Source: a virus. Taken from it: a stretch of 36,243 nt of DNA. Positions 23,939-36,243 of the stretch are shown here, in pieces (position 1 is the first letter of the stretch; every line of letters starts with the position of its first letter). Location: UHGV virus genome UHGV-0229041. One strand, written 5' to 3'. Under the pieces are notes generated by a model that ran no database searches, was not told where the DNA came from, and was given only the letters and a program-made list of their open reading frames with translations. The position numbers were made by a program, and so were the translations under genes.

Positions 23939-24129
23939 GATTCACCTCCGCAGAGGTCAAACGCTGGATGCAAAAAATCGCAGGTACATTTCTGCATCTG
24001 TGAAGGGAGAAGAGAGTTTGGATTGTATGTGCGCATAAACGTCCCCGTTTAGCGCAGAAGTCACCGGAGTTGTTCAGGCTCCGGTGACTTAATTATGACA
24101 AGTTGATTATGGAAAATCAAAGCTTGTCA

Positions 24130-25512: not shown

Positions 25513-26007
25513 TCATTTCCAATTGCAAGACTGTGAAATTTTTTCCACAACCTTATCAATCTCAGACAAGTCAAACTCAACTACTTGCATAGTTGATCCA
25601 TAAGGTTCAAACCCAAAAATAGCTTTTTTATGCTTAGCCAAGGTCTTTATAAATTGTATTGGTTGTGGAGCAAATGCAGAATCACCGCCTTCCCCACCTC
25701 CCCAAACACTCTTGACCGGCTTTCCGCCATCTAACCGCACTGTAATTCTTGGGTTGTCCGACCCCATATAATCATTGAATGATAAATAGGCATCTGTTTT
25801 GTTATCACTACAACGCAACACCAGTGAAGTTGCACGATCAGTACCTGCTTTGTTATATGAATCTGGTGATAAATTAAGAGCCACAAAGTCAGTCTGGTCA
25901 GTCATTTTATTTATCTCAGACTTTGTTATCCACGGCCCTAACTTCTCTACACCAGCATTTGCTGTAAACGAGGCACTTATGACAAAGGCTAAAATAAATT
26001 TTCTCAT
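25513..26007 (-). CDS. Hypothetical secreted/periplasmic protein with signal peptide
   Basis: MRKFILAFVISASFTANA signal-peptide-like N-terminus; AGGAGA Shine-Dalgarno; two Cys in the mature part. Confidence 0.55.
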   Translation of the reverse strand: MRKFILAFVISASFTANAGVEKLGPWITKSEINKMTDQTDFVALNLSPDSYNKAGTDRATSLVLRCSDNKTDAYLSFNDYMGSDNPRITVRLDGGKPVKSVWGGGEGGDSAFAPQPIQFIKTLAKHKKAIFGFEPYGSTMQVVEFDLSEIDKVVEKISQSCNWK

Positions 26008-26153
26008 AACCCTATCTCCTTGGATTTAAAGAACTAAATATTATCAAGTCTCTTGCCACTAGAAAACCCACTTTATTTCCAAACTCTGACGGCATTCCTG
26101 AAAATCCGCTTCATACTCACTTGCCCCGCCCTATCATCCTGAGTAGCTAACCG

Positions 26154-26327
26154 TTAAACAAACGTTCGCCAGACCTTACCATCAATGACCAGGATTCCTG
26201 CCCGCGCCATTTTTGCCGCAGCCTGATTTATGCTGGTTAATGTCATACCTGTTGTCGCAGCAACGTCCGGCGCACAGAAGCTCTTGTGCGTCTCCAGATA
26301 ATGAATAATTGCCTCTTTGCCCGTCAT
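26154..26327 (-). pseudogene. ren: ren, N-terminal 57 codons only (truncated relative to about 96-aa lambda Ren)
   Basis: MTGKEAIIHYLETHKSFCAPDVAATTGMTLTSINQAAAKMARAGILVIDGKVWRTFV matches the recalled N-terminus of lambda Ren; ATGA overlap with the P stop. Confidence 0.6.
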
Positions 26328-27025
26328 ACAGTTGCTCCTTTCAGTCCGAACTTCGCTTTGATTTCTGCGATCTTCGCCAGAGCCTGTGCACGATTTAGAG
26401 GTCTACCGCCCATGACAGGAAGTTGTTTTACTGGTTCAGGTATCGCCTCACCACGGTTAATTCGCGCGGTCATACAAGTCAGTTCATCGGCAGCCTTGCG
26501 CCGTAATTCCGCATCAGTCAGCGCATTGGCCCGCATGTTCTGATACAGGTTGGTAACCAACCAGTAGTGCGCGTTTGATTTCCATGGATAAGACTCTGCA
26601 TCCGGATAAAGGCCACGCTTCCGGCAATACTCGTAAACCATATCAACCAGCTCGCTGGCGTTTGGCAGCCCGGCGTTAACGGATGCTTCTTCCCGGCACC
26701 AGGCGACAAACTGCCCGGGTGATGGCAGGAATGGTCGATTCTGCCGACGGGCTACGCGCATTCCTGCGTTAACCTGTTCCATTGTGGTGATCCCGTTTTC
26801 CCGGAAAGCCAGAACCCACTGGCGGCGGATTTCGTTCAGTTCATTCTGGTCACGGTTAGCCAGGCTCGCCGGGAAAGTTGCCAGTAACTGGCTGAACACA
26901 CCGTTGATGATCTGCGCTACCTGCTGTACCTGCGGCTTTTCGTCGTACTGTTCCGGCATGTTGTTGGCGATCCGGCGCATCTGCTCACGGTCAAAGTTAA
27001 CCATCTGTGCGGCGATGTTTTTCAT
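26324..27025 (-). CDS. P: Replication protein P (DnaB helicase loader)
   Basis: MKNIAAQMVNFDREQMRRIANNMPEQYDEKPQVQQVAQIINGVFSQLLATFPASLANRDQNE, near identical to recalled lambda P. Confidence 0.95.
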   Translation of the reverse strand: MKNIAAQMVNFDREQMRRIANNMPEQYDEKPQVQQVAQIINGVFSQLLATFPASLANRDQNELNEIRRQWVLAFRENGITTMEQVNAGMRVARRQNRPFLPSPGQFVAWCREEASVNAGLPNASELVDMVYEYCRKRGLYPDAESYPWKSNAHYWLVTNLYQNMRANALTDAELRRKAADELTCMTARINRGEAIPEPVKQLPVMGGRPLNRAQALAKIAEIKAKFGLKGATV

Positions 27026-27951
27026 AAATCCACCCCGTAAATCCAGTCAGTGTTTGTCAGGTCGAGTTTTGGTTTGCTGGCTATCATGCCTGCCTGTTGC
27101 TTGTTACGGTTGATTTCGAGTTGGGTCCACTTGTCGCGGAGTTTGGCCGGACTCAGCACGTTACCTGACCAGAAGTTGTCCTGGCATGCCCAGCGGAACA
27201 GCACGCACATGTCGCGGTGGTTACGTCCGTCACGTTCACGCATCAGGCGGATATCGTTAGCCCACCCTGCAAAATTCGGTTTTCTGGCTGAGGGCGCGAT
27301 GGTCTTCACCATGTCAAACATCCACTCTGCGGCGGTCAGGTCTTCTGCTGTCCCCCACTTGCTGCCGCTCTGAATTGCAGCATCCCGTTTCTCCACAGGA
27401 AAGTCGTTTTCTGGCTGGTCAGAGGATTCGCCAGAATTCTCGGACGAAAAAGGTTTTATATTGTCTTTTGTTAGTTTGTCTTTTGTGTTTACCTGATTCG
27501 GGTAAGTGCCTTTACCTGATTTGGGTAAACTTTTCTTACCTGATTCAGGTAAATTTACCTCTTTCAGGTAAACTTTATTTTTCTTACCTGATTCGGGTAA
27601 TGTTGACCATTCACTGACCACATTATTAATGCCGATATTCCGCCCGCTCTGAATAAAAATCCCACGCTTTACCAGAACACTTTTTGCAGCAGAACACTTG
27701 TGCGGCAATATCCCGGTCAACTCGGAAAGTTGCTCGTTGCTCACCCAATCCAGTTTTTTATTAAAGCCATATGTTTTGCGCATGACAGCCAGGAAGACCA
27801 GAAGCTGGTGCTGTGTTAATCCGGCCAGCATCACAGCTTCCAGCAACTCATTTGCAATGCGCGTATAACCATCATCGAGATCTGCCACGCGCGGCTCCTT
27901 TTGTGCCGCATCCGGCACTGGAAAATTGAATATCTCAGCAGTGTTTGCCAT
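27022..27951 (-). CDS. O: Replication initiator O (ATG at 27951 with GGAGG Shine-Dalgarno)
   Basis: MANTAEIFNFPVP...VADLDDGY resembles the lambda O N-terminus; contains the ori iterons; the ORF-track start 28041 overlaps the upstream gene. Confidence 0.9.
   Translation of the reverse strand: MANTAEIFNFPVPDAAQKEPRVADLDDGYTRIANELLEAVMLAGLTQHQLLVFLAVMRKTYGFNKKLDWVSNEQLSELTGILPHKCSAAKSVLVKRGIFIQSGRNIGINNVVSEWSTLPESGKKNKVYLKEVNLPESGKKSLPKSGKGTYPNQVNTKDKLTKDNIKPFSSENSGESSDQPENDFPVEKRDAAIQSGSKWGTAEDLTAAEWMFDMVKTIAPSARKPNFAGWANDIRLMRERDGRNHRDMCVLFRWACQDNFWSGNVLSPAKLRDKWTQLEINRNKQQAGMIASKPKLDLTNTDWIYGVDL
27489..27600. repeat. Replication origin iterons (five copies of a roughly 18-bp TTACCTGATTCGGGTAA-like repeat) inside O
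   Basis: Copies at about 27489, 27512, 27536, 27555 and 27584, each an internal TTACC...GGTAA inverted repeat. Confidence 0.75.
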
Positions 27952-28037
27952 AATTCCTCCCGCAATGAGTGTGTTACGATTTGCACCTGAAAGTCGGTTC
28001 TGTTCCAGCAGACCGGCTTTCGCCATTTCTGAACCTG

Positions 28038-28583
28038 TCATATCGCCCCCAGCATGGTAGTAACCATCGCCATCAATGGACCAGCCAGATCCGGGTCCAC
28101 ACGAAACATCGACACAATACCTTCACTCATTTCCTTCAGTTTCTGGTGGCGTGGTGCGTTGAGAATGACAGCCTGTTTTGCCTCACTGAGTTCCTTTTCC
28201 ATTTCAGCCAACCTAGCCATGAAGCTATCCTGCTCAACCAGGTAACCGCGATATTCCAGCGGTAGTACCGCCAGAATTGCCGGGGTCAGTTCACGCACGT
28301 TATTTCGGTATTTTTCAGAATCGAATTTGTTATCGAGGAAGCGGAACAGCTTCTGGCGTGCACGGCTGACATCATCAGGGAAATCGATGGTGCCGCCGCC
28401 CTGCTCCCGATACTCATTCACAATGAGTGCGGCAACAACATCCTGATTATCTGCAGCCGACCAGGCGCGAACGGCATCACGGATTTTTTCGTGGCCTGGC
28501 GCCTGTTTTGTTTGAGAACGATTTATCACCGCAGTCGGGCTAAATCCGCTAGTCTGTTGGTATGTAAGTGGTTGCATAGTCAT
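28038..28583 (-). CDS. YdaT-like regulatory protein (cII-position gene)
   Basis: 181-aa ORF between the cro-like gene and O, Rac ydaS-ydaT-like arrangement. Confidence 0.55.
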   Translation of the reverse strand: MTMQPLTYQQTSGFSPTAVINRSQTKQAPGHEKIRDAVRAWSAADNQDVVAALIVNEYREQGGGTIDFPDDVSRARQKLFRFLDNKFDSEKYRNNVRELTPAILAVLPLEYRGYLVEQDSFMARLAEMEKELSEAKQAVILNAPRHQKLKEMSEGIVSMFRVDPDLAGPLMAMVTTMLGAI

Positions 28584-28607
28584 TGCCTTATCAGTTAACG
28601 CCGCAGT

Positions 28608-28841
28608 TTAGGCGGCAGAATTACTCGCGTTAAACAATGGTGCGAGGTCGGGACGAATATCTGCTGGTTTAATCTTTCCACCAGTGGCTGAGACAATTTT
28701 CATTACATAGCGGGCATCAATTCCGCCACCGTGTAGCCAACGCCAAACTGTGGGTTGGGCTACACCGCATAGATCTGCCAGTCGTTTTTGACTACCTGTA
28801 ATACTGATTGCGAGTTGAATGGTTTGATTTGTCATTATCAA
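28608..28841 (-). CDS. Cro-like HTH regulator (YdaS family)
   Basis: 77 aa, HTH GSQKRLADLCGVAQPTVWRW, divergent from cI. Confidence 0.7.
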   Translation of the reverse strand: MIMTNQTIQLAISITGSQKRLADLCGVAQPTVWRWLHGGGIDARYVMKIVSATGGKIKPADIRPDLAPLFNASNSAA

Positions 28842-28945
28842 TTCCTATTGGTATTACAATGAATGAATAATAGCAATGCGTATTAATCCAAGCAATAGCA
28901 AAACGTGTTTTGACCATCAATACGCAAGCGTATAAATTAAAACTT
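28842..28945. promoter_or_regulatory. Divergent cI/cro promoter-operator region (OR-like)
   Basis: Intergenic between divergent repressor genes; contains AATAGCAAT (28869 to 28877), CAATAGCAA (28893 to 28901) and the imperfect palindrome ATACGCAAGCGTAT. Confidence 0.5.
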
Positions 28946-29638
28946 ATGAAAAAAGAAACTCTTGCTGATCGCTTAAACCTAGCGATGGAACAATCTGGAA
29001 TGTCTCAAGGCGCTCTTGCAAAGGCGTCTGGCGTAGCTCAACCCACAATCTGGAGACTGACAAGCGGCAACGCGCGCGGCTCAACAAAAATTGTTGAAAT
29101 AGCTAATGCATTGGGTGTTCGAACAGAATGGCTCTCATCAGGCATAGGCCCGATGAGAAATGACGGTCAACAATCAGGGAAGCCTGCTGTCAGCCATTCA
29201 AAATACTTCAAGATTGACGTTCTTGATATAGAAGTCAGTGCCGGACCGGGTGTCATCAACCGTGAGTTTGTGGAAGTTCTACGCTCGGTTGAGTACTCGT
29301 TTGACGATGCTCGTCACATGTTCGATGGCAGGAAGGCGGAAAATATCCGCATCATTAACGTGCGCGGTGACAGCATGTCAGGAACGATCGAACCAGGTGA
29401 TCTGCTGTTCGTTGATATCACTGTTAAATCTTTCGACGGTGATGGTATCTATGCGTTTCTGTACGACGACACAGCCCATGTAAAGCGTCTGCAAATGATG
29501 AAGGATAAGCTGCTGGTTATCTCTGATAACAAGAGCTACTCACCGTGGGACCCGATCGAGAAAGACGAGATGAACCGGGTGTTCATCTTCGGTAAGGTTA
29601 TTGGGAGCATGCCGCAGACTTACCGAAAGCATGGTTAA
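28946..29638 (+). CDS. cI: CI-type repressor with HTH and S24 LexA-like autopeptidase domain (alternative start 28910)
   Basis: N-terminal HTH MSQGALAKASGVAQPTIWRL; C-terminal VRGDSMSGTIEPGDLLFVD with catalytic Ser motif and downstream Lys. Confidence 0.85.
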   Translation: MKKETLADRLNLAMEQSGMSQGALAKASGVAQPTIWRLTSGNARGSTKIVEIANALGVRTEWLSSGIGPMRNDGQQSGKPAVSHSKYFKIDVLDIEVSAGPGVINREFVEVLRSVEYSFDDARHMFDGRKAENIRIINVRGDSMSGTIEPGDLLFVDITVKSFDGDGIYAFLYDDTAHVKRLQMMKDKLLVISDNKSYSPWDPIEKDEMNRVFIFGKVIGSMPQTYRKHG

Positions 29639-29869
29639 ACGACCTGCATTGCGGGTCACACCGCATATTTATAGCCAAAGCATACCTAGCAATGGACTGA
29701 ATGCAGCTTACAAGATATCATTGTTTTTCAAAGAAAAGGGAACAATACCCTTTTGAAAAGCAGCAATCATTGTCAACGGCACTAATAGTACGCAATGAGC
29801 AAAACTTAGCTGTTTAATAAGCATGCAAATAATGAAGGTATCATCATATTAACAATGTGTTGGTGAAGC

Positions 29870-30193
29870 ATGAACGACAATAACAAGAATACTCGATCGC
29901 CAGAAGAGCATGAAGCTGTAGAAAAAGCGTTATCTGTTACACGAGCAGATATCGCGGAGTATTTTACTTCATTCGAAAAGCAGCATGGCGATATGTTGTG
30001 TCCGCTATGCAAAACATCTCTTTGGGCCATCACGCCTAGAATTGATAGTGATGAGCATGCAGCTATTATCACTTTACCATTGCCTAATGCATCTGGCAGG
30101 GGGGTTTGGGCATATCCTATTATATGCTCTGGATGTGGCTATATAATTCATCTTTCTGCAAGTTTTGTCGTAGGCAAAATCAAAGGAGAATGA
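29870..30193 (+). CDS. Hypothetical zinc-ribbon-like protein, first gene of the rex-position operon
   Basis: 107 aa with CPLCK and CSGCGY Cys pairs; AT-rich; ATGA overlap with the next gene. Confidence 0.5.
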   Translation: MNDNNKNTRSPEEHEAVEKALSVTRADIAEYFTSFEKQHGDMLCPLCKTSLWAITPRIDSDEHAAIITLPLPNASGRGVWAYPIICSGCGYIIHLSASFVVGKIKGE

Positions 30194-30648
30194 AAGTGGC
30201 TACTGTTGCAATAGATGGTTATTCATTCATCACGGTTTCCGATAGTTGCATCTCTGACACAGCGCTTCCACCTATTGAAAATACTTATGGTGACAATATA
30301 TACATACCCAAAATCGTTGAAACCATAGGTCCGGTTTATCGCCAAAAAGACTTAGATCACAGATACATACTTTACGCAGTGGCTGTATCATTAGTGCTCA
30401 CTTTAAGTGTTGTTGTATGGTCTATAGGAGGTAGGTTTATGGTCTACATTCCATTATACGTTGCACTTGCACCTATCGTTTATTGGTTACTGAAGATTTC
30501 CTATGCTTACTGCCTCGTAAAATGTGCTGGCTCCAGTCTCCTAGATGACTTTGATTCTCACCATATTGAGAACAACAGGTTTGTAAAGCGTATTAATAGT
30601 ATTTCATTCAGAGTAGTTGCTATAACAAAAAAACTTTTCTGGAGATAA
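30190..30648 (+). CDS. Hypothetical membrane protein, rex-position operon gene 2 (alternative GTG start 30196)
   Basis: About 152 aa with two central hydrophobic helices; start overlaps the gene 1 stop. Confidence 0.5.
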   Translation: MKVATVAIDGYSFITVSDSCISDTALPPIENTYGDNIYIPKIVETIGPVYRQKDLDHRYILYAVAVSLVLTLSVVVWSIGGRFMVYIPLYVALAPIVYWLLKISYAYCLVKCAGSSLLDDFDSHHIENNRFVKRINSISFRVVAITKKLFWR

Positions 30649-30649
30649 G

Positions 30650-31072
30650 ATGGCAGAAGGGCGTCTAAAAACCGCGGGTAAAAACAGCCTGCCTTTTGCC
30701 ATTACCAGTGTTCTTTGTGGTTACATTAACCACATGGTTCCTGAAATTTTTCCGGAAGGGGAAATGCGCCAATGGGCATATAGCACGATCCCAATGCTAT
30801 CGCTGGTTTTACTGTACATTATTAGGACAATTAAAGATTTTGGAACTATGAGTCTGGCTCGTCTGGCTATTACTATATGTGCTACCCCAGAGAAAAAGCG
30901 CCTCAAACTCATAATGTCTGATAAGCATGTCAGTGAGGAAACAAAAGCTATAGCCGAGGCTCGTTATAATCAAATTATTCAAAAAGAATTAGAAATAGGC
31001 TCCAATGCGGTTGATTATGTAGTAGGTATGCCAATTGTACATAATCAACCCAGACCAACAATTGATGAATAA
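30650..31072 (+). CDS. Hypothetical membrane protein, rex-position operon gene 3
   Basis: 140 aa, GGAG Shine-Dalgarno 5 nt upstream, starts 1 nt after the gene 2 stop; hydrophobic N-terminal half. Confidence 0.5.
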   Translation: MAEGRLKTAGKNSLPFAITSVLCGYINHMVPEIFPEGEMRQWAYSTIPMLSLVLLYIIRTIKDFGTMSLARLAITICATPEKKRLKLIMSDKHVSEETKAIAEARYNQIIQKELEIGSNAVDYVVGMPIVHNQPRPTIDE

Positions 31073-31083
31073 TTCGTAAAAAA

Positions 31084-31110
31084 CCCGGCCACCGTGCCGG
31101 GTTTTCTTTT
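31084..31110 (+). terminator. Intrinsic terminator ending the cI plus rex-position operon
   Basis: CCCGGC-CACCGT-GCCGGG hairpin followed by TTTTCTTTT. Confidence 0.65.
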
Positions 31111-31229
31111 GCCTCCCCTCATCACACAAACCGTTCAAAAAACCACCACACCTCACTTCAGTTATCGCTATGCGATGCAAGTCACAAAATTAATTCTTTT
31201 TGCTATCAAACATTTAATATCAAAACACA

Positions 31230-31275
31230 TCAACCAATAGCAATAAGTATTGATATCACCAATAGCAATAGCTAT
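31230..31275. promoter_or_regulatory. OL-like operator / early-left promoter region
   Basis: Two direct copies of ACCAATAGCAATA (31233 to 31245 and 31258 to 31270) sharing the AATAGCAA core with the OR region. Confidence 0.45.
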
Positions 31276-31471
31276 TATCACCATATCGCAACAACACAAC
31301 GATACGGCAACCACCTGATTCACCGTTGCGATGACCGCTTAGATCCGCAGTTTGAATTTCAGCAGGCTTCGGGGAGTGCGAGGGGTGAAACGGACGCGTG
31401 AACGTCGGTGTGACCAGCTGAAATCAACACAACACTTTATACCTCAGTCGCTTCAACGAGGCGGCTTAGTT

Positions 31472-31762
31472 ATGACAACCGGCGGCCATCCACCGCCTGA
31501 ATACGCGCAGAAGTCTCTATATGTTCAGCAGCCCAGCTTACGGGCAGGAGTTTTTATGGTTCATCAACATTACGGAACGCAGACCGTTAATCGCGGCGCG
31601 GTCATGCCAGGAATGCTGGTCAAACACAAAGATGGTACCTGGACTGCATCAGCTAATTTACGCGGACGGCTTTATCTGCATCGCGGCATCGAGCGCACTT
31701 ATACCCGTGATTTGCTCGTGGAAGTTTTTCTCGACGGACGCGGTAACGGCCTGAATCACTAA
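31472..31762 (+). CDS. Hypothetical early protein upstream of gam (lambda kil position)
   Basis: 96-aa ORF from first ATG with GAGG Shine-Dalgarno; no recognised family. Confidence 0.35.
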   Translation: MTTGGHPPPEYAQKSLYVQQPSLRAGVFMVHQHYGTQTVNRGAVMPGMLVKHKDGTWTASANLRGRLYLHRGIERTYTRDLLVEVFLDGRGNGLNH

Positions 31763-31838
31763 CCCCCCTTTCCTGTTTTCCTAATCAGCCTGGCATTTCG
31801 CGGGCGATATTTTCACAGCCATTTTCAGGAGTTCAGCC

Positions 31839-32135
31839 ATGAACGCTTATTACATTCAGGATCGTCTTGAGGCTCAGAGCTGGGCGCGTCACTACCAGCA
31901 GATCGCCCGTGAAGAGAAAGAGGCAGAACTGGCAGACGACATGGAAAAAGGCCTGCCCCAGCATTTGTTTGAATCGCTCTGCATCGATCATTTGCAACGC
32001 CACGGGGCCAGCAAAAAAGCCATTACCCGTGCATTTGATGACGATGTTGAGTTTCAGGAGCGCATGGCAGAACACATCCGGTACATGGTTGAAACCATTG
32101 CTCACCATCAGGTTGATATTGATTCAGAGGTATAA
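31839..32135 (+). CDS. gam: Gam (RecBCD inhibitor), short GamS form
   Basis: [60 protein letters not shown], near identical to recalled lambda Gam. Confidence 0.95.
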
Positions 32136-32140
32136 AACGG

Positions 32141-32926
32141 ATGAGTACAGCACTCGCAACGCTGGCTGGGAAGCTGGCTGAACGTGTCGGCATGGATTCT
32201 GTCGACCCACAGGAACTGATCACCACTCTTCGCCAGACGGCATTTAAAGGTGATGCCAGCGATGCGCAGTTCATCGCATTGTTGATCGTCGCCAACCAGT
32301 ACGGCCTTAATCCGTGGACGAAAGAAATTTACGCTTTCCCTGATAAGCAGAACGGCATCGTTCCGGTGGTGGGCGTTGATGGCTGGTCCCGCATCATCAA
32401 TGAAAACCAGCAGTTTGATGGCATGGACTTTGAACAGGACAACGAATCCTGCACATGCCGGATTTACCGCAAAGACCGCAATCATCCGATCTGCGTTACC
32501 GAGTGGATGGATGAATGCCGCCGCGAACCATTCAAAACCCGCGAAGGCAGAGAAATCACCGGACCGTGGCAGTCGCATCCCAAACGGATGTTACGGCATA
32601 AAGCCATGATTCAGTGTGCCCGTCTGGCCTTCGGATTTGCGGGTATCTATGACAAGGATGAAGCCGAGCGCATTGTCGAAAATACCGCATACACTGCAGA
32701 ACGTCAGCCGGAACGCGACATCACTCCGGTTAACGATGAAACCATGCAGGAAATTAACACTCTGCTGATCGCCCTGGATAAAACATGGGATGACGACTTA
32801 TTGCCGCTCTGTTCCCAGATATTTCGCCGCGACATTCGCGCATCGTCAGAACTGACACAGGCCGAAGCAGTGAAAGCTCTTGGATTCCTGAAACAAAAAG
32901 CCACTGAGCAGAAGGTGGCAGCATGA
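32141..32926 (+). CDS. bet: Bet (Red-beta single-strand annealing protein)
   Basis: [66 protein letters not shown], near identical to recalled lambda Bet. Confidence 0.95.
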
Positions 32927-33603
32927 CACCGGACATTATACTGCAGCGTACCGGGATCGACGTGAGAGCTGTCGAACAGGGGGATGATGCATGGCACAAA
33001 TTACGGCTCGGCGTCATCACCGCTTCAGAAGTTCACAACGTGATAGCAAAACCCCGCTCCGGAAAGAAGTGGCCTGACATGAAAATGTCCTACTTCCACA
33101 CCCTGCTTGCCGAGGTTTGCACCGGTGTGGCTCCGGAAGTTAACGCTAAAGCACTGGCCTGGGGAAAACAGTACGAGAACGACGCCAGAACCCTGTTTGA
33201 GTTCACTTCCGGCGTGAATGTTATTGAATCCCCGATCATCTATCGCGACGAAAGTATGCGCACCGCCTGCTCTCCCGATGGTTTATGCAGTGATGGCAAC
33301 GGCCTTGAACTGAAATGCCCGTTTACCTCCCGGGATTTCATGAAGTTCCGGCTCGGTGGTTTCGAGGCCATAAAATCGGCTTACATGGCCCAGGTGCAGT
33401 ACAGCATGTGGGTGGCACGAAAAGATGCCTGGTACTTTGCCAACTATGACCCGCGGATGAAGCGTGAAGGCCTGCATTATGTCGTGATTGAGCAGGATGA
33501 AAAGTACATGGCGAGTTTTGACGAGATGGTGCCGGAGTTCATCGAAAAAATGGACGAGGCACTGGCTGAAATTGGTTTTGTATTTGGGGAGCAATGGCGA
33601 TGA
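32923..33603 (+). CDS. exo: Exo (lambda exonuclease, Red-alpha)
   Basis: [50 protein letters not shown], near identical to recalled lambda Exo. Confidence 0.95.
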
Positions 33604-33782
33604 AGCATCCTCACGATAATATCCGGGTAGGCGCGATCACTTTCGTCTACTCCGTTACAAAGCGAGGCTGGGTATTTCCCGGCCTTTCTGTTACCCGAAA
33701 TCCCCTGAAAGCACAGCGGCTGGCTGAGGAGATAAATAATAAACGGGGAGCTGTATGCACAAAGCATCTCCTGTTGAGTTAA
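33594..33782 (+). CDS. Small early protein (lambda orf60a-like position)
   Basis: 62-aa ORF overlapping the exo stop. Confidence 0.4.
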
Positions 33783-33946
33783 GAACGAGCATTGAGATGG
33801 CACATAGCCTCGCTCAAATTGGAGTCAGGTTTGTGCCAATACCAGTAGAAACAGACGAAGAATTTCATACGTTAGCCGCATCCCTTTCACAAAAGCTGGA
33901 AATGATGGTGGCGAAAGCAGAAGCAGATGAGAGAGACCAGGTATGA
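33755..33946 (+). CDS. Small early protein
   Basis: 63-aa acidic ORF in the early-left operon. Confidence 0.4.
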   Translation: MHKASPVELRTSIEMAHSLAQIGVRFVPIPVETDEEFHTLAASLSQKLEMMVAKAEADERDQV

Positions 33947-34022
33947 CAACCACTGAATGCATTTTTCTGGCAGCGGGCTTCATATTCTGTGTGCTTATGC
34001 TTGCCGACATGGGACTTGTTCA

Positions 34023-34238
34023 ATGACACCTCAGCAGGAAAACGCCCTTCGCAGCATTGCACGTCAGGCTAATTCTGAAATCAAAAAAGCCAGACAGCAG
34101 TTTCCGGATAAAAACGTCGATGACATTTGCCGTAGCGTACTTAAGAAGCACCGCGAAACGGTAACGCTGATGGGATTCACACCGACTCATTTAAGCCTGG
34201 CGATCGGCATGTTAAACGGCGTCTTTAAGGAACGGTGA
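34023..34238 (+). CDS. Small early protein (start uncertain; ORF opens at 33957)
   Basis: MTPQQENALRSIARQANSEIKKARQQFPDKNVDD. Confidence 0.4.
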   Translation: MTPQQENALRSIARQANSEIKKARQQFPDKNVDDICRSVLKKHRETVTLMGFTPTHLSLAIGMLNGVFKER

Positions 34239-34336
34239 ACATGAAAAGCAAAATCATCAGGGAGCTACAGGCTCCTTTTTTATTGTTCGCATTCATCCTC
34301 AAGCGTATTAACCAACAATTCAGGGATTAATGGAAG

Positions 34337-34555
34337 ATGGCAGACATCATTGATTCAGCATCAGAAATCGAAGAATTACAGCGCAATACAGCAATAAAAA
34401 TGCGTCGTCTGAACTACCAGACTGTATCCGCAACTCATTGTTGTGAGTGTGGCGATCCGATAGATGAGCGAAGACGCCTGGCTGTTCAGGGTTGTCGGAC
34501 TTGTGCAAGTTGCCAGGAGGAGATCGAACTTAAGAACAAACAATGGGGACTGTGA
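34337..34555 (+). CDS. TraR/DksA-family C4 zinc-finger protein (lambda Orf73-like)
   Basis: 72 aa with CCECGDPIDE and CRTCASCQEE Cys pairs. Confidence 0.7.
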   Translation: MADIIDSASEIEELQRNTAIKMRRLNYQTVSATHCCECGDPIDERRRLAVQGCRTCASCQEEIELKNKQWGL

Positions 34556-34602
34556 TGGCCTCAAAGCAGCAAATTTCAACATCGTCCAACTGAGGTGTAA
34601 AA

Positions 34603-34881
34603 ATGTTCAGAATCATTTTTCCTAACACCTGGTACGTCGACCACCACGGCACTCCCTGCAAAATCCTGCGTTCTACCCACAACAAAGTTCACTACATCCG
34701 AAAAGGCAGAACATGTATCGCCAGCATGTTCCGCTTTAATCATGACTTTGAACCTGTGAATAAAGCTGATGCAGATCGGATAGCAGAAGAGATCGAAACG
34801 GCAGAACACATTAAGAAGTTACGTGACATGCGTTCAAAAAGCAGAGGTAACCATGGAATCATACAGCCTCACACTCGATGA
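34603..34881 (+). CDS. Hypothetical protein
   Basis: 92-aa ORF with GAGGT Shine-Dalgarno. Confidence 0.4.
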   Translation: MFRIIFPNTWYVDHHGTPCKILRSTHNKVHYIRKGRTCIASMFRFNHDFEPVNKADADRIAEEIETAEHIKKLRDMRSKSRGNHGIIQPHTR

Positions 34882-35203
34882 GGCCTGTCAGTTTCTCAAG
34901 ATATCCAGACCTACCGCTACCAACTGGATACGAACAGGCCGCCTACAGGCAACACGCAAAGACCCCACTAAACTAAAATCTCCTTACCTCACAACACGAC
35001 AAGCCTGCATTGCGGCGCTTCAGTCTCCGCTGCATACTGTCCAGGTGAGCGCGGGTGATGGCATAACAGAGGAAAGAAAATGTCACTCTTCCGCAGAGGT
35101 GAAATATGGTACGCCAGTTTCACATTGCCGAACGGTAAAAGATTTAAACAGTCTCTTGGAACAAAGGACAAAAGGCAGGCGACAGAACTCCATGACAAGC
35201 TAA
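34853..35203 (+). CDS. xis: Excisionase (AlpA/Xis-type HTH); true 3-prime end uncertain, ORF overlaps int
   Basis: [42 protein letters not shown] immediately upstream of int. Confidence 0.65.
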
Positions 35204-36243
35204 AGGCTGAAGCATGGCGGGTCAGCAAACTTGGTGAAATACCTGATATAACGTTCGAGGAAGCGTGTGTCAGGTGGCTTGAAGAGAAAGCACATAAAAA
35301 ATCACTGGACGATGACAAAAGCCGGATCGGATTCTGGCTTCAACATTTCGCAGGAATGCAACTAAGAGACATTACTGAATCAAAAATTTATTCAGCAATG
35401 CAGAAAATGACGAACCGGCGTCATGAGGAAAACTGGAGACTCAGGGCAGAAGCATGCAGAAAAAAAGGGAAACCTGTTCCAGAATACACGCCAAAACCAG
35501 CGTCCGTTGCAACGAAGGCTACGCATCTTTCATTTATAAAGGCCCTACTAAGAGCCGCAGAGCGTGAATGGAAAATGCTGGATAAGGCACCAATTATTAA
35601 AGTGCCTCAACCAAAGAATAAACGGATCCGCTGGCTGGAGCCCCATGAAGCACAAAGGCTGATTGATGAATGTCCGGAGCCATTAAAGTCTGTTGTTGAA
35701 TTTGCACTGGCAACAGGTTTAAGACGCTCGAACATCATCAACCTTGAATGGCAACAAATAGATATGCAGCGCCGGGTGGCATGGATAAACCCGGAAGAGA
35801 GTAAATCAAACCGCGCAATTGGCGTTGCGCTGAATGATACTGCATGTCGCGTATTGAAAAAACAAATCGGGAATCATCACCGTTGGGTATTTGTGTACAA
35901 GGAAAGCTGTACCAAACCAGACGGAACGAAAGCGCCAACAGTAAGGAAGATGCGGTATGACGCAAACACAGCCTGGAAAGCGGCGCTGAGACGGGCTGGT
36001 ATTGATGATTTCAGATTTCACGACTTGAGACACACCTGGGCAAGTTGGCTGGTTCAAGCCGGAGTCCCGTTGTCAGTGTTACAGGAAATGGGAGGCTGGG
36101 AGTCTATCGAAATGGTTCGTCGATATGCTCACCTTGCACCTAATCACCTTACCGAACACGCACGGCAAATAGACTCGATCCTGAACCCATCGGTCCCAAA
36201 TTCGTCCCAGTCAAAAAATAAGGAAGGTACTAATGATGTGTAA
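35080..36243 (+). CDS. int: Tyrosine integrase, e14/phage 21 type
   Basis: [48 protein letters not shown] and C-terminal [15 protein letters not shown]...VRRYAHL catalytic region, resembles recalled e14 IntE. Confidence 0.95.

Follow-up and report, generated by a model that had tools for sequence, protein, structure and literature searches.

The window analyzed here, the whole 36,243-bp stretch of virus genome UHGV-0229041, is a lambdoid prophage whose map runs opposite to that of lambda. It is a lambda-like E. coli prophage. Its cro-cI segment (28600-29640) is 100% identical to E. coli O157:H16 strain Santai. Of 5,426 complete E. coli genomes, 719 (about 13%) carry at least 80% of the cro-OR-cI stretch. 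A further ~1,500 complete E. coli genomes match the cro-OR-cI segment only in part, probably through a shared cI C-terminal domain.

The minus strand carries O- and P-like replication genes (the O-like gene at 27022-28041), a gene for a YdaT-family protein at the cII position (28038-28583; PHROG "CII-like activator"), and cro (28608-28835), which encodes a 75-aa YdaS-family HTH protein. The pairing of a YdaS-family cro with a YdaT-family protein (28038-28835) is a right operon of the CP-933P/Rac type, not of the lambda Cro/CII type. On the plus strand are the cI repressor gene (28946-29638; 230 aa) and three cargo open reading frames (ORFs) of 107, ~158, and 140 aa that lie between cI and OL (29870-31072). 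An intrinsic-terminator-like hairpin on the same strand (31080-31105; 10-bp stem with six GC pairs, followed by a T run) ends the cI-cargo transcription unit directly upstream of OL. The first early-left ORF, for a Kil-family protein, starts at 31472 or 31556 on the plus strand; gam, bet, and exo come after it, and int lies at the window end.

The cI and cro genes are adjacent and divergent, and the cI product combines an HTH with a LexA-like S24 peptidase (Pfam HTH_3 and Peptidase_S24). Its N-terminal HTH contains SGVAQPTIWRLTSG, while Ala99-Gly100, Ser143, and Lys180 are all present in the C-terminal S24 peptidase domain. The solved structure closest to the N-terminal domain is that of the 434 repressor (E about 1e-5). 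The recognition helices of cI (GVAQPTIWR) and cro (GVAQPTVWRW) are nearly identical, with AQPT[IV]WR in common, as would be expected if both proteins read the same sites.

The cargo ORFs occupy the position of rexAB or BstA. Across 29870-31072 there was no Pfam match, no credible PADLOC match, and one uninformative PHROG match. Judged by its sequence, the middle ORF (~158 aa) looks membrane-spanning, and a promoter-like site lies within the cargo region at 30042-30069. The genes at this position are wholly different in relatives, with BstA in BTP1 and other genes in coliphages, among them an ASCH protein in 4A7; PhiR phages have genes annotated as HipA/HipD or GevT/GevA. The cargo ORFs are possibly an unknown superinfection-exclusion or defence module.

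Five copies of a ~22-nt repeat, TTTTCTTACCTGATTCAGGTAA, occur at 27484-27600 inside the O-like gene with a spacing of 19-29 bp, each containing a TTACC-N7-GGTAA dyad. Their appearance is that of lambda-type ori iterons lying within O. The YdaT motif footprinted in CP-933P, TTGATTN6AATCAA, has a perfect copy at 24103-24120 and a copy with one mismatch at 28824-28841, over the cro start codon. Allowing up to two mismatches, there are six matches in the window against 2.1 expected. YdaT helices vary, and the location of the motif in the window differs from that in CP-933P (PMC9986795).

Promoters and repeats on either side of cI

PL was found by promoter scan on the plus strand (10/12 matches), with -35 TTGATA at 31250-31255, a 17-nt spacer, and -10 TATTAT at 31273-31278. 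Its hexamers are conserved in relatives, and it reads into kil-gam-bet-exo. PR was read by eye on the minus strand, with -35 TTGCTT at 28895-28890, a 17-nt spacer, and -10 TATTAT at 28872-28867. The promoter scan did not report it because its -35 matches the consensus at only 3/6 positions. Across 30 aligned OR sequences, the TTG of this -35 and all of the -10 vary little or not at all. PRM, also found by promoter scan, is on the plus strand with -35 TTGACC at 28910, a 17-nt spacer, and -10 TAAATT at 28933-28938; TTTGAC and TATAAAT of this region are conserved in the same 30 sequences. Transcription from PRM is predicted to begin at the cI ATG or right next to it, and the cI mRNA is thus probably leaderless.

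Between PL and the Kil-family ORF (31285-31471), we detected no N-like gene and no obvious nut site. In this the prophage differs from BTP1 and ST104, which have an N/nut system after PL, with P22-type boxA/boxB. Conservation of the ~190-nt PL leader extends to phages of another immunity type (Turner). A put-like antiterminator RNA in the leader (31285-31475) was considered and rejected, as the predicted fold is no better than that of shuffled sequences (z = -0.35) and the leader does not obviously resemble the sequence that follows PL in HK022. An Rfam search (evalue mode, 26000-36243) returned no match, and the OL region and PL leader therefore match no curated RNA family.

The sequence-only reading had described a 13-bp direct repeat between the terminator at the rex position and the first early-left ORF. 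We find both the repeat and its placement as described: ACCAATAGCAATA occurs exactly twice in the window, at 31233-31245 and 31258-31270 on the plus strand, between the hairpin and the Kil-family ORF, and has no other exact copy. With a spacing of 25 bp, the similarity between the two copies reaches over 19 nt (89% identity). A first-order Markov model predicts 0.03 exact 13-mer repeats within 50 bp per window, and 8 of 300 simulations contained one or more.

An 8-mer core, AATAGCAA, is present in four copies when both strands of the window are searched: two at OL (31236-31243 and 31261-31268) and two in the cI/cro gap (28869-28876 and 28894-28901). The earlier reading had correctly placed the core twice in this gap, with coordinates about one base off (28869-28877 and 28893-28901). 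All four copies thus fall in the two expected control regions, and they are 25 bp apart in each. The chance expectation is 1.28 copies, and 6 of 100 shuffles reached four, so that the count of the 8-mer taken alone is weak evidence.

Another short sequence near PL, TATCACCA, occurs at 31254-31261 and 31276-31283, 22 bp apart, and resembles the lambda half-site TATCACC. We rejected it as an operator, since it is adjacent to the -10 and is replaced by TATTATCAAT or other sequences in relatives that keep the operators. The pair is probably a coincidental promoter-adjacent sequence.

Sixteen-base-pair sites and their symmetry

Searches for repeats and inverted repeats returned a third copy in OR at 28919 and an inverted copy at 31189-31207. 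When the sites are aligned, the predicted functional unit is a 16-bp dyad, with the ideal form AATAGCAA joined to TTGCTATT, and not a direct repeat. The 13-bp direct repeat of the earlier description is thus refined to a dyad in which AATAGCAA would be one strong half-site. Six sites of equal length in the window share this partly two-fold-symmetric consensus. Their outer AATA…TATT is nearly invariant, and their twelve half-sites follow A-A-T-A-[G/C]-[C/G]-N-A; a half-site matrix reads A-A-T-A-[G/C]-C-N-A. The look of direct repeats comes from the strong half being on one and the same side in OL1, OL2, OR1, and OR2. Two other units suggested by eye, a 20-bp palindrome ATAGCAA-N6-TTGCTAT and a 12-14-bp CAATA-NN-TATTG, each fit only some of the sites, whereas the 16-bp frame AATA-N8-TATT fits all six window sites and those of relatives.

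Both repeats are operator-like sites in this frame. OL1 (AATAGCAATAGCTATT, 31261-31276) is a near-perfect palindrome, symmetric at 14/16 positions, and has the highest score in the window with the position weight matrix (PWM) described below (21.2). It fills the PL spacer, and its last four nucleotides are the first four of the PL -10. Its position is conserved in relatives, where the outer AATA/TATT is kept and the inner bases vary. OL2 (AATAGCAATAAGTATT, 31236-31251) lies 25 bp from OL1 and ends two bases into the PL -35. An alternative overlapping register, AATAAGTATTGATATC (31242-31257), scores 10.4 against 19.8 for the 25-bp register. In relatives, both registers, which are 6 bp apart, score well, and Proteus and Morganella loci use the one 19 bp from OL1. 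Because the two registers overlap, the exact boundaries of OL2 are uncertain.

Further sites, which the sequence-only reading had not listed alongside these two, lie in both control regions. A distal OL3 (AATTCTTTTTGCTATC, 31192-31207) is situated 44 bp from OL2, with its strong half, GATAGCAA, inverted. Its PWM score is 12.6, although it is itself a training site. The block AAATTCnTTTnGCTATCAA at this site is conserved in Salmonella, Kluyvera, and Enterobacter loci despite differing flanks. Between OL3 and OL2 is a remnant half-site, AATATCAA (31216-31223, plus strand), which is degenerate here (16-mer score 4.5); at the same position, relatives have a full and often perfect palindrome, AATAGCAATTGCTATT (loci L013-L030). 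At 31211-31226, 25 bp upstream of OL2, there is no motif match. Relatives have up to five OL sites, comprising the distal AAATTCnTTTnGCTATCAA block, AATAGCAATTGCTATT, OL2 in two registers, and OL1.

OR sites are found at the same uniform spacing of 25 bp. OR1 (AATAGCAATGCGTATT, 28869-28884; score 20.3) overlaps the PR -10 in the register that OL1 has on PL. It lies at -77 from the cI ATG in most of 30 relative loci, among which only its three central bases vary. OR2 (AATAGCAAAACGTGTT, 28894-28909), 25 bp from OR1, reaches 2 nt into the PR -35 and borders directly on the PRM -35. OR1 and OR2 together sit on PR in exactly the register of OL1 and OL2 on PL. OR3 (AATACGCAAGCGTATA, 28919-28934), also missing from the earlier list, is built around the core palindrome ATACGC-AA-GCGTAT and spans the spacer and -10 of PRM; in relatives it lies at -27 from the cI ATG. 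The distance from OL1 to OR1 is 2,392 bp.

A candidate fourth OR site (AATTCCTATTGGTATT, 28840-28855) lies in the PR leader, at about +5 to +20 of the transcript, and overlaps the cro Shine-Dalgarno sequence. The GTAT of its right half does not vary among the 30 aligned sequences. Since the left half falls on the Shine-Dalgarno sequence, conservation of the site has in part another cause, and we hold it with lower confidence.

A symmetric PWM was trained on the six window sites (OL1-3 and OR1-3). The eight best matches in the window all fall at 28834-28934 or 31192-31276. The three best scores (21.2, 20.3, and 19.8) exceed the best of 200 shuffles (17.6), a comparison that is partly circular because these three are training sites. 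This circularity is limited to the window's own sites, and does not extend to other loci or to the candidate fourth OR site, which was outside the training set and scores 18.2. Both AATAGCAA and the top PWM matches are found only at OL and OR and are otherwise absent from the prophage. The motif is therefore restricted to the immunity region and not spread over the phage genome.

Relatives with the same and with different recognition helices

The same operators are found in phages with the same helix. In the coliphages PhiR30_1, 4A7, 4C10, 1W, and Perceval, cI is 97-100% identical to that of the window, and OR and OL are the same, with different cargo between them. The Salmonella P22-like phages BTP1 and ST104 have a cI that is 86% identical with an identical HTH, and keep OR1-3 and OL1/2/3. 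Their substitutions are mainly in central bases, for example GCG to TAG or GAG in OR1. In OL1 of both phages the strong half is on the other side (AATACTCA followed by ATGCTATT), which is the behavior of a dyad; the strong half of OL1 is also on the opposite side in Kluyvera and Proteus.

BTP1, ST104, SE1, ST160, 4A7, 4C10, 1W, Perceval, and PhiR30_1 all have the same helix and the same OL/OR operator set as the window. By inference from these sequences, the four Salmonella phages and the listed coliphages would form one immunity group with the window prophage. Operators are unannotated in the records of these Salmonella phages and coliphages, and the text of the BTP1 paper makes no mention of operators.

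We observed that OL2 of BTP1 (L003 4051-4066) reads AATAACAAAACGTATT, while that of ST104 (L004 4052-4067) has AATAGC. An A at half-site position 5 is rare, being present in 4 of 170 half-sites. Single-base differences are present in OR1 and OR3 of BTP1 as well. Spontaneous induction of this phage is known to be very high (PMC5322425), and it is conceivable that the rare A of its OL2 (AATAAC) contributes to this.

A search by the cI N-terminal domain, with one genome per species, gave 38 loci. The QPTIWR helix is carried by 30 of these, from about 20 enterobacterial genera that include Kluyvera, Citrobacter, Enterobacter, Yokenella, Pluralibacter, Raoultella, Siccibacter, Buttiauxella, Proteus, Providencia, Serratia, Morganella, and others. 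All but two of the 30 QPTIWR loci (28/30) carry sites near -77, -52, and -27 relative to the cI ATG, together with a cluster of two to five sites 0.86-3.25 kb downstream of the cI ATG. The exceptions, L029 and L035, have fewer or shifted sites. In the alignment of OR (30 sequences), the conserved columns are the outer bases of the operators and the promoter hexamers, while the spacers vary.

Loci with other helices lack these sites. None of the 16-bp sites is present in the Gilliamella (QPAIQK) and Gallibacterium faecale (QPAIAK) loci, and they are likewise absent from Turner, Klebsiella ST15-VIM1phi2.1, and HK022. Upstream of the cI homologue, three Gilliamella loci (L040, L041, and L043; helix ISQPAIQKL) have AATAAC-N4-GTTAT[TC] and GATAAC…GTTATA palindromes where the QPTIWR loci have AATAGC…GCTATT.

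The Turner group offers a natural swap. Turner and its relatives match the window only from mid-cI onward (query position 638, window 29187). They have the cI C-terminal domain in common with it, and the flanks on both sides of OL agree at almost every base, yet their HTH is different, and a block of roughly 95 bp at OL/PL is replaced by AAAACAAC/GTTGTT palindromes, which also fill the Turner OR. PhiR26_1 likewise has the OL flanks without the operators. The window motif is absent from the Turner immunity region, and the Turner motif from that of the window. At two separate genomic locations, the operator motif therefore changes in step with the DNA-binding domain. Across heteroimmune relatives, the operators thus covary with the DNA-binding domain of the repressor.

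A probable lambda-type switch and its known counterparts

We consider it very likely that the two repeats represent OL1 and OL2 and belong to a lambda-type immunity switch with three or more left-operator sites. Such sites flank cI on both sides, over the divergent promoters PL and PR as well as PRM. The operator interpretation of the sequence-only reading is supported in that the repeats lie over a good sigma-70 promoter into kil-gam-bet-exo (PL, TTGATA-17-TATTAT, where promoter prediction had been proposed as a check) and share their motif with three equally spaced sites in the cI/cro gap. Its proposal that the motif defines immunity specificity also agrees with what we see, since the motif tracks the repressor recognition helix across phages.

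From this arrangement we infer binding by CI and Cro, an order of affinities, cooperativity, PRM activation, and looping. Each 16-bp site would be bound by a CI dimer and, during lytic growth, by Cro. In the lysogen, CI on OL1 and OL2 would cover both hexamers of PL (-10 and -35) and shut off kil-gam-bet-exo-xis-int, and CI on OR1 and OR2, which have the same geometry, would silence PR; the dimers on each pair would probably bind cooperatively and block RNA polymerase at both promoters. As OR2 abuts the PRM -35, CI bound there may activate PRM in a lambda-like positive autoregulation. OR3, over the PRM -10, would serve negative autoregulation and is likely the first target of Cro. After DNA damage, RecA-stimulated self-cleavage of CI at Ala99-Gly100 would release all sites. 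Looping between OL and OR across the 2,392 bp is possible, of the type that CI has been shown to mediate in lambda and HK022 (PMC8053113).

Might the repeats be chance or compositional features of AT-rich intergenic DNA, or duplicated promoter elements without a repressor role? The OL region does have a GC content of 39% against 51% for the window, the number of 8-mer copies is of little significance against shuffles, and in OL1 and OR1 the outer TATT is also part of a -10, so that some conservation is promoter-driven. However, the 13-mer repeat is far rarer by chance than observed, sites are also found in promoter spacers and upstream of the -35, the 16-bp pattern recurs at fixed offsets in 30 loci with diverged flanks, and it is gone when the recognition helix changes. 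These observations make a chance origin extremely improbable. An equally slim prospect is that the unit is a direct repeat of 13-19 bp, read head-to-tail like iterons or RDF sites. It would account for the single orientation of AATAGCAA in OL1/OL2 and OR1/OR2 and for the constant 25-bp period, but not for the palindromy of OL1, the perfect AATAGCAATTGCTATT palindromes of relatives, the strong half on the other side of OL1 in BTP1, ST104, Kluyvera, and Proteus, or the inverted OL3 in the window itself. Furthermore, the repressor is a 434/lambda-class HTH protein, and repressors of this class bind dyads.

It is also quite unlikely, if slightly less so, that the sites are genuine but serve a regulator other than CI, such as a host factor, the YdaT-family analogue of CII, or Cro/YdaS alone. 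With its matching helix, Cro would be expected to bind in any case, and the one-mismatch YdaT-type motif at 28824-28841 adjoins the candidate fourth OR site. Against this, the junction of the Turner-type swap falls inside cI, at the boundary of its N- and C-terminal domains (window 29187), so that the operator change tracks the DNA-binding domain of cI plus cro. The characterized YdaT motif is different and is located elsewhere, at the end of ydaS (PMC9986795), while sites for a host factor would stay constant across immunity types. Thus, CI-bound operators are the preferred reading. Within it, we regard as rather doubtful a four-plus-four arrangement, with a conserved PR-leader site on the ribosome-binding site of cro, a distal site of OL lying 44 bp upstream, and mutually exclusive OL2 registers at 19 and 25 bp. 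If true, the PR-leader site would act as a CI/Cro roadblock or a block of the translational region, and alternative cooperative pairings or a looped complex unlike the lambda octamer could form.

The set is, as far as its sequence can tell, a standard lambdoid operator set in kind, with every sequence-testable defining feature found. Conceptually, it holds nothing beyond the lambda paradigm, and its value is practical. A specificity this common (~13% of complete E. coli, as well as Salmonella BTP1/ST104) seems undescribed in the searched literature. Six of these operator 16-mers had no match in the non-subscription papers searched, and matches to the 8-mer AATAGCAA were swamped by sgRNA scaffolds. 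The operator code AATAGCAA plus TTGCTATT, paired with helix QPTIWR, would describe a very common enterobacterial immunity type and make immunity groups predictable from sequence. It also offers natural pairs of helix and half-site for recognition-code work (QPTIWR-AATAGC vs QPAIQK-AATAAC), and the basis of the high spontaneous induction of BTP1 becomes testable at the operator level.

Lambda has the same general plan. Common to both are tripartite operators on each side of cI, over PL and over PR/PRM, with the PRM -35 adjoined by an O2-type site and the PRM -10 covered by an O3-type site; a cI that is likely leaderless, encoding a repressor with HTH and S24 domains and an Ala-Gly site; a terminator and cargo genes between cI and OL; and an OL-OR distance of about 2.4 kb. 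The window sites, however, are 16 bp long (AATAGCAA joined to TTGCTATT) with a uniform 25-bp spacing, whereas those of lambda are 17 bp (TATCACCGC…). OL3 is 44 bp away, and there is a possible fourth OR site in the cro leader. Also unlike lambda, Cro belongs to the YdaS family, a YdaT-family protein occupies the CII position, and no N gene follows PL.

The 434 repressor has Gln at the start of its recognition helix, as does the window cI. Operators of both phages have invariant outer 4 bp and a variable center, but those of 434 are 14 bp (ACAA-N6-TTGT) with ACAA in place of AATA. The similarity to 434 is distant, and the immunity is therefore certainly different.

CP-933P of E. coli O157:H7 is likewise a lambdoid switch with YdaS as Cro and YdaT as the CII analogue. 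Its PaaR2/YdaS/YdaT switch has a leaderless repressor gene (PMC8630535, PMC9986795), four equally spaced OR palindromes, and three OL sites at a PL-like promoter (PMC8630535). Its consensus, GTTTAGTAA, lies in 18-bp palindromes that have been footprinted, while the window sites are predicted from sequence, and PaaR2 is a different protein.

HK022 has a cI homologue that is 40% identical to the window cI. Its OL3 is 53 bp from OL2, a further operator lies past OR, and OL and OR are looped together by HK022 CI (PMC8053113). The annotation of ST104 suggests HK022 as the same immunity, which we reject, as cI is only 40% identical and the operators differ. HK022 sites are TGAAC-N5-GTTCA, and its specificity is thus different; its recognition helix differs as well. 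The predicted operator specificity of the window prophage is distinct from those of lambda, 434, P22, HK022, and CP-933P.
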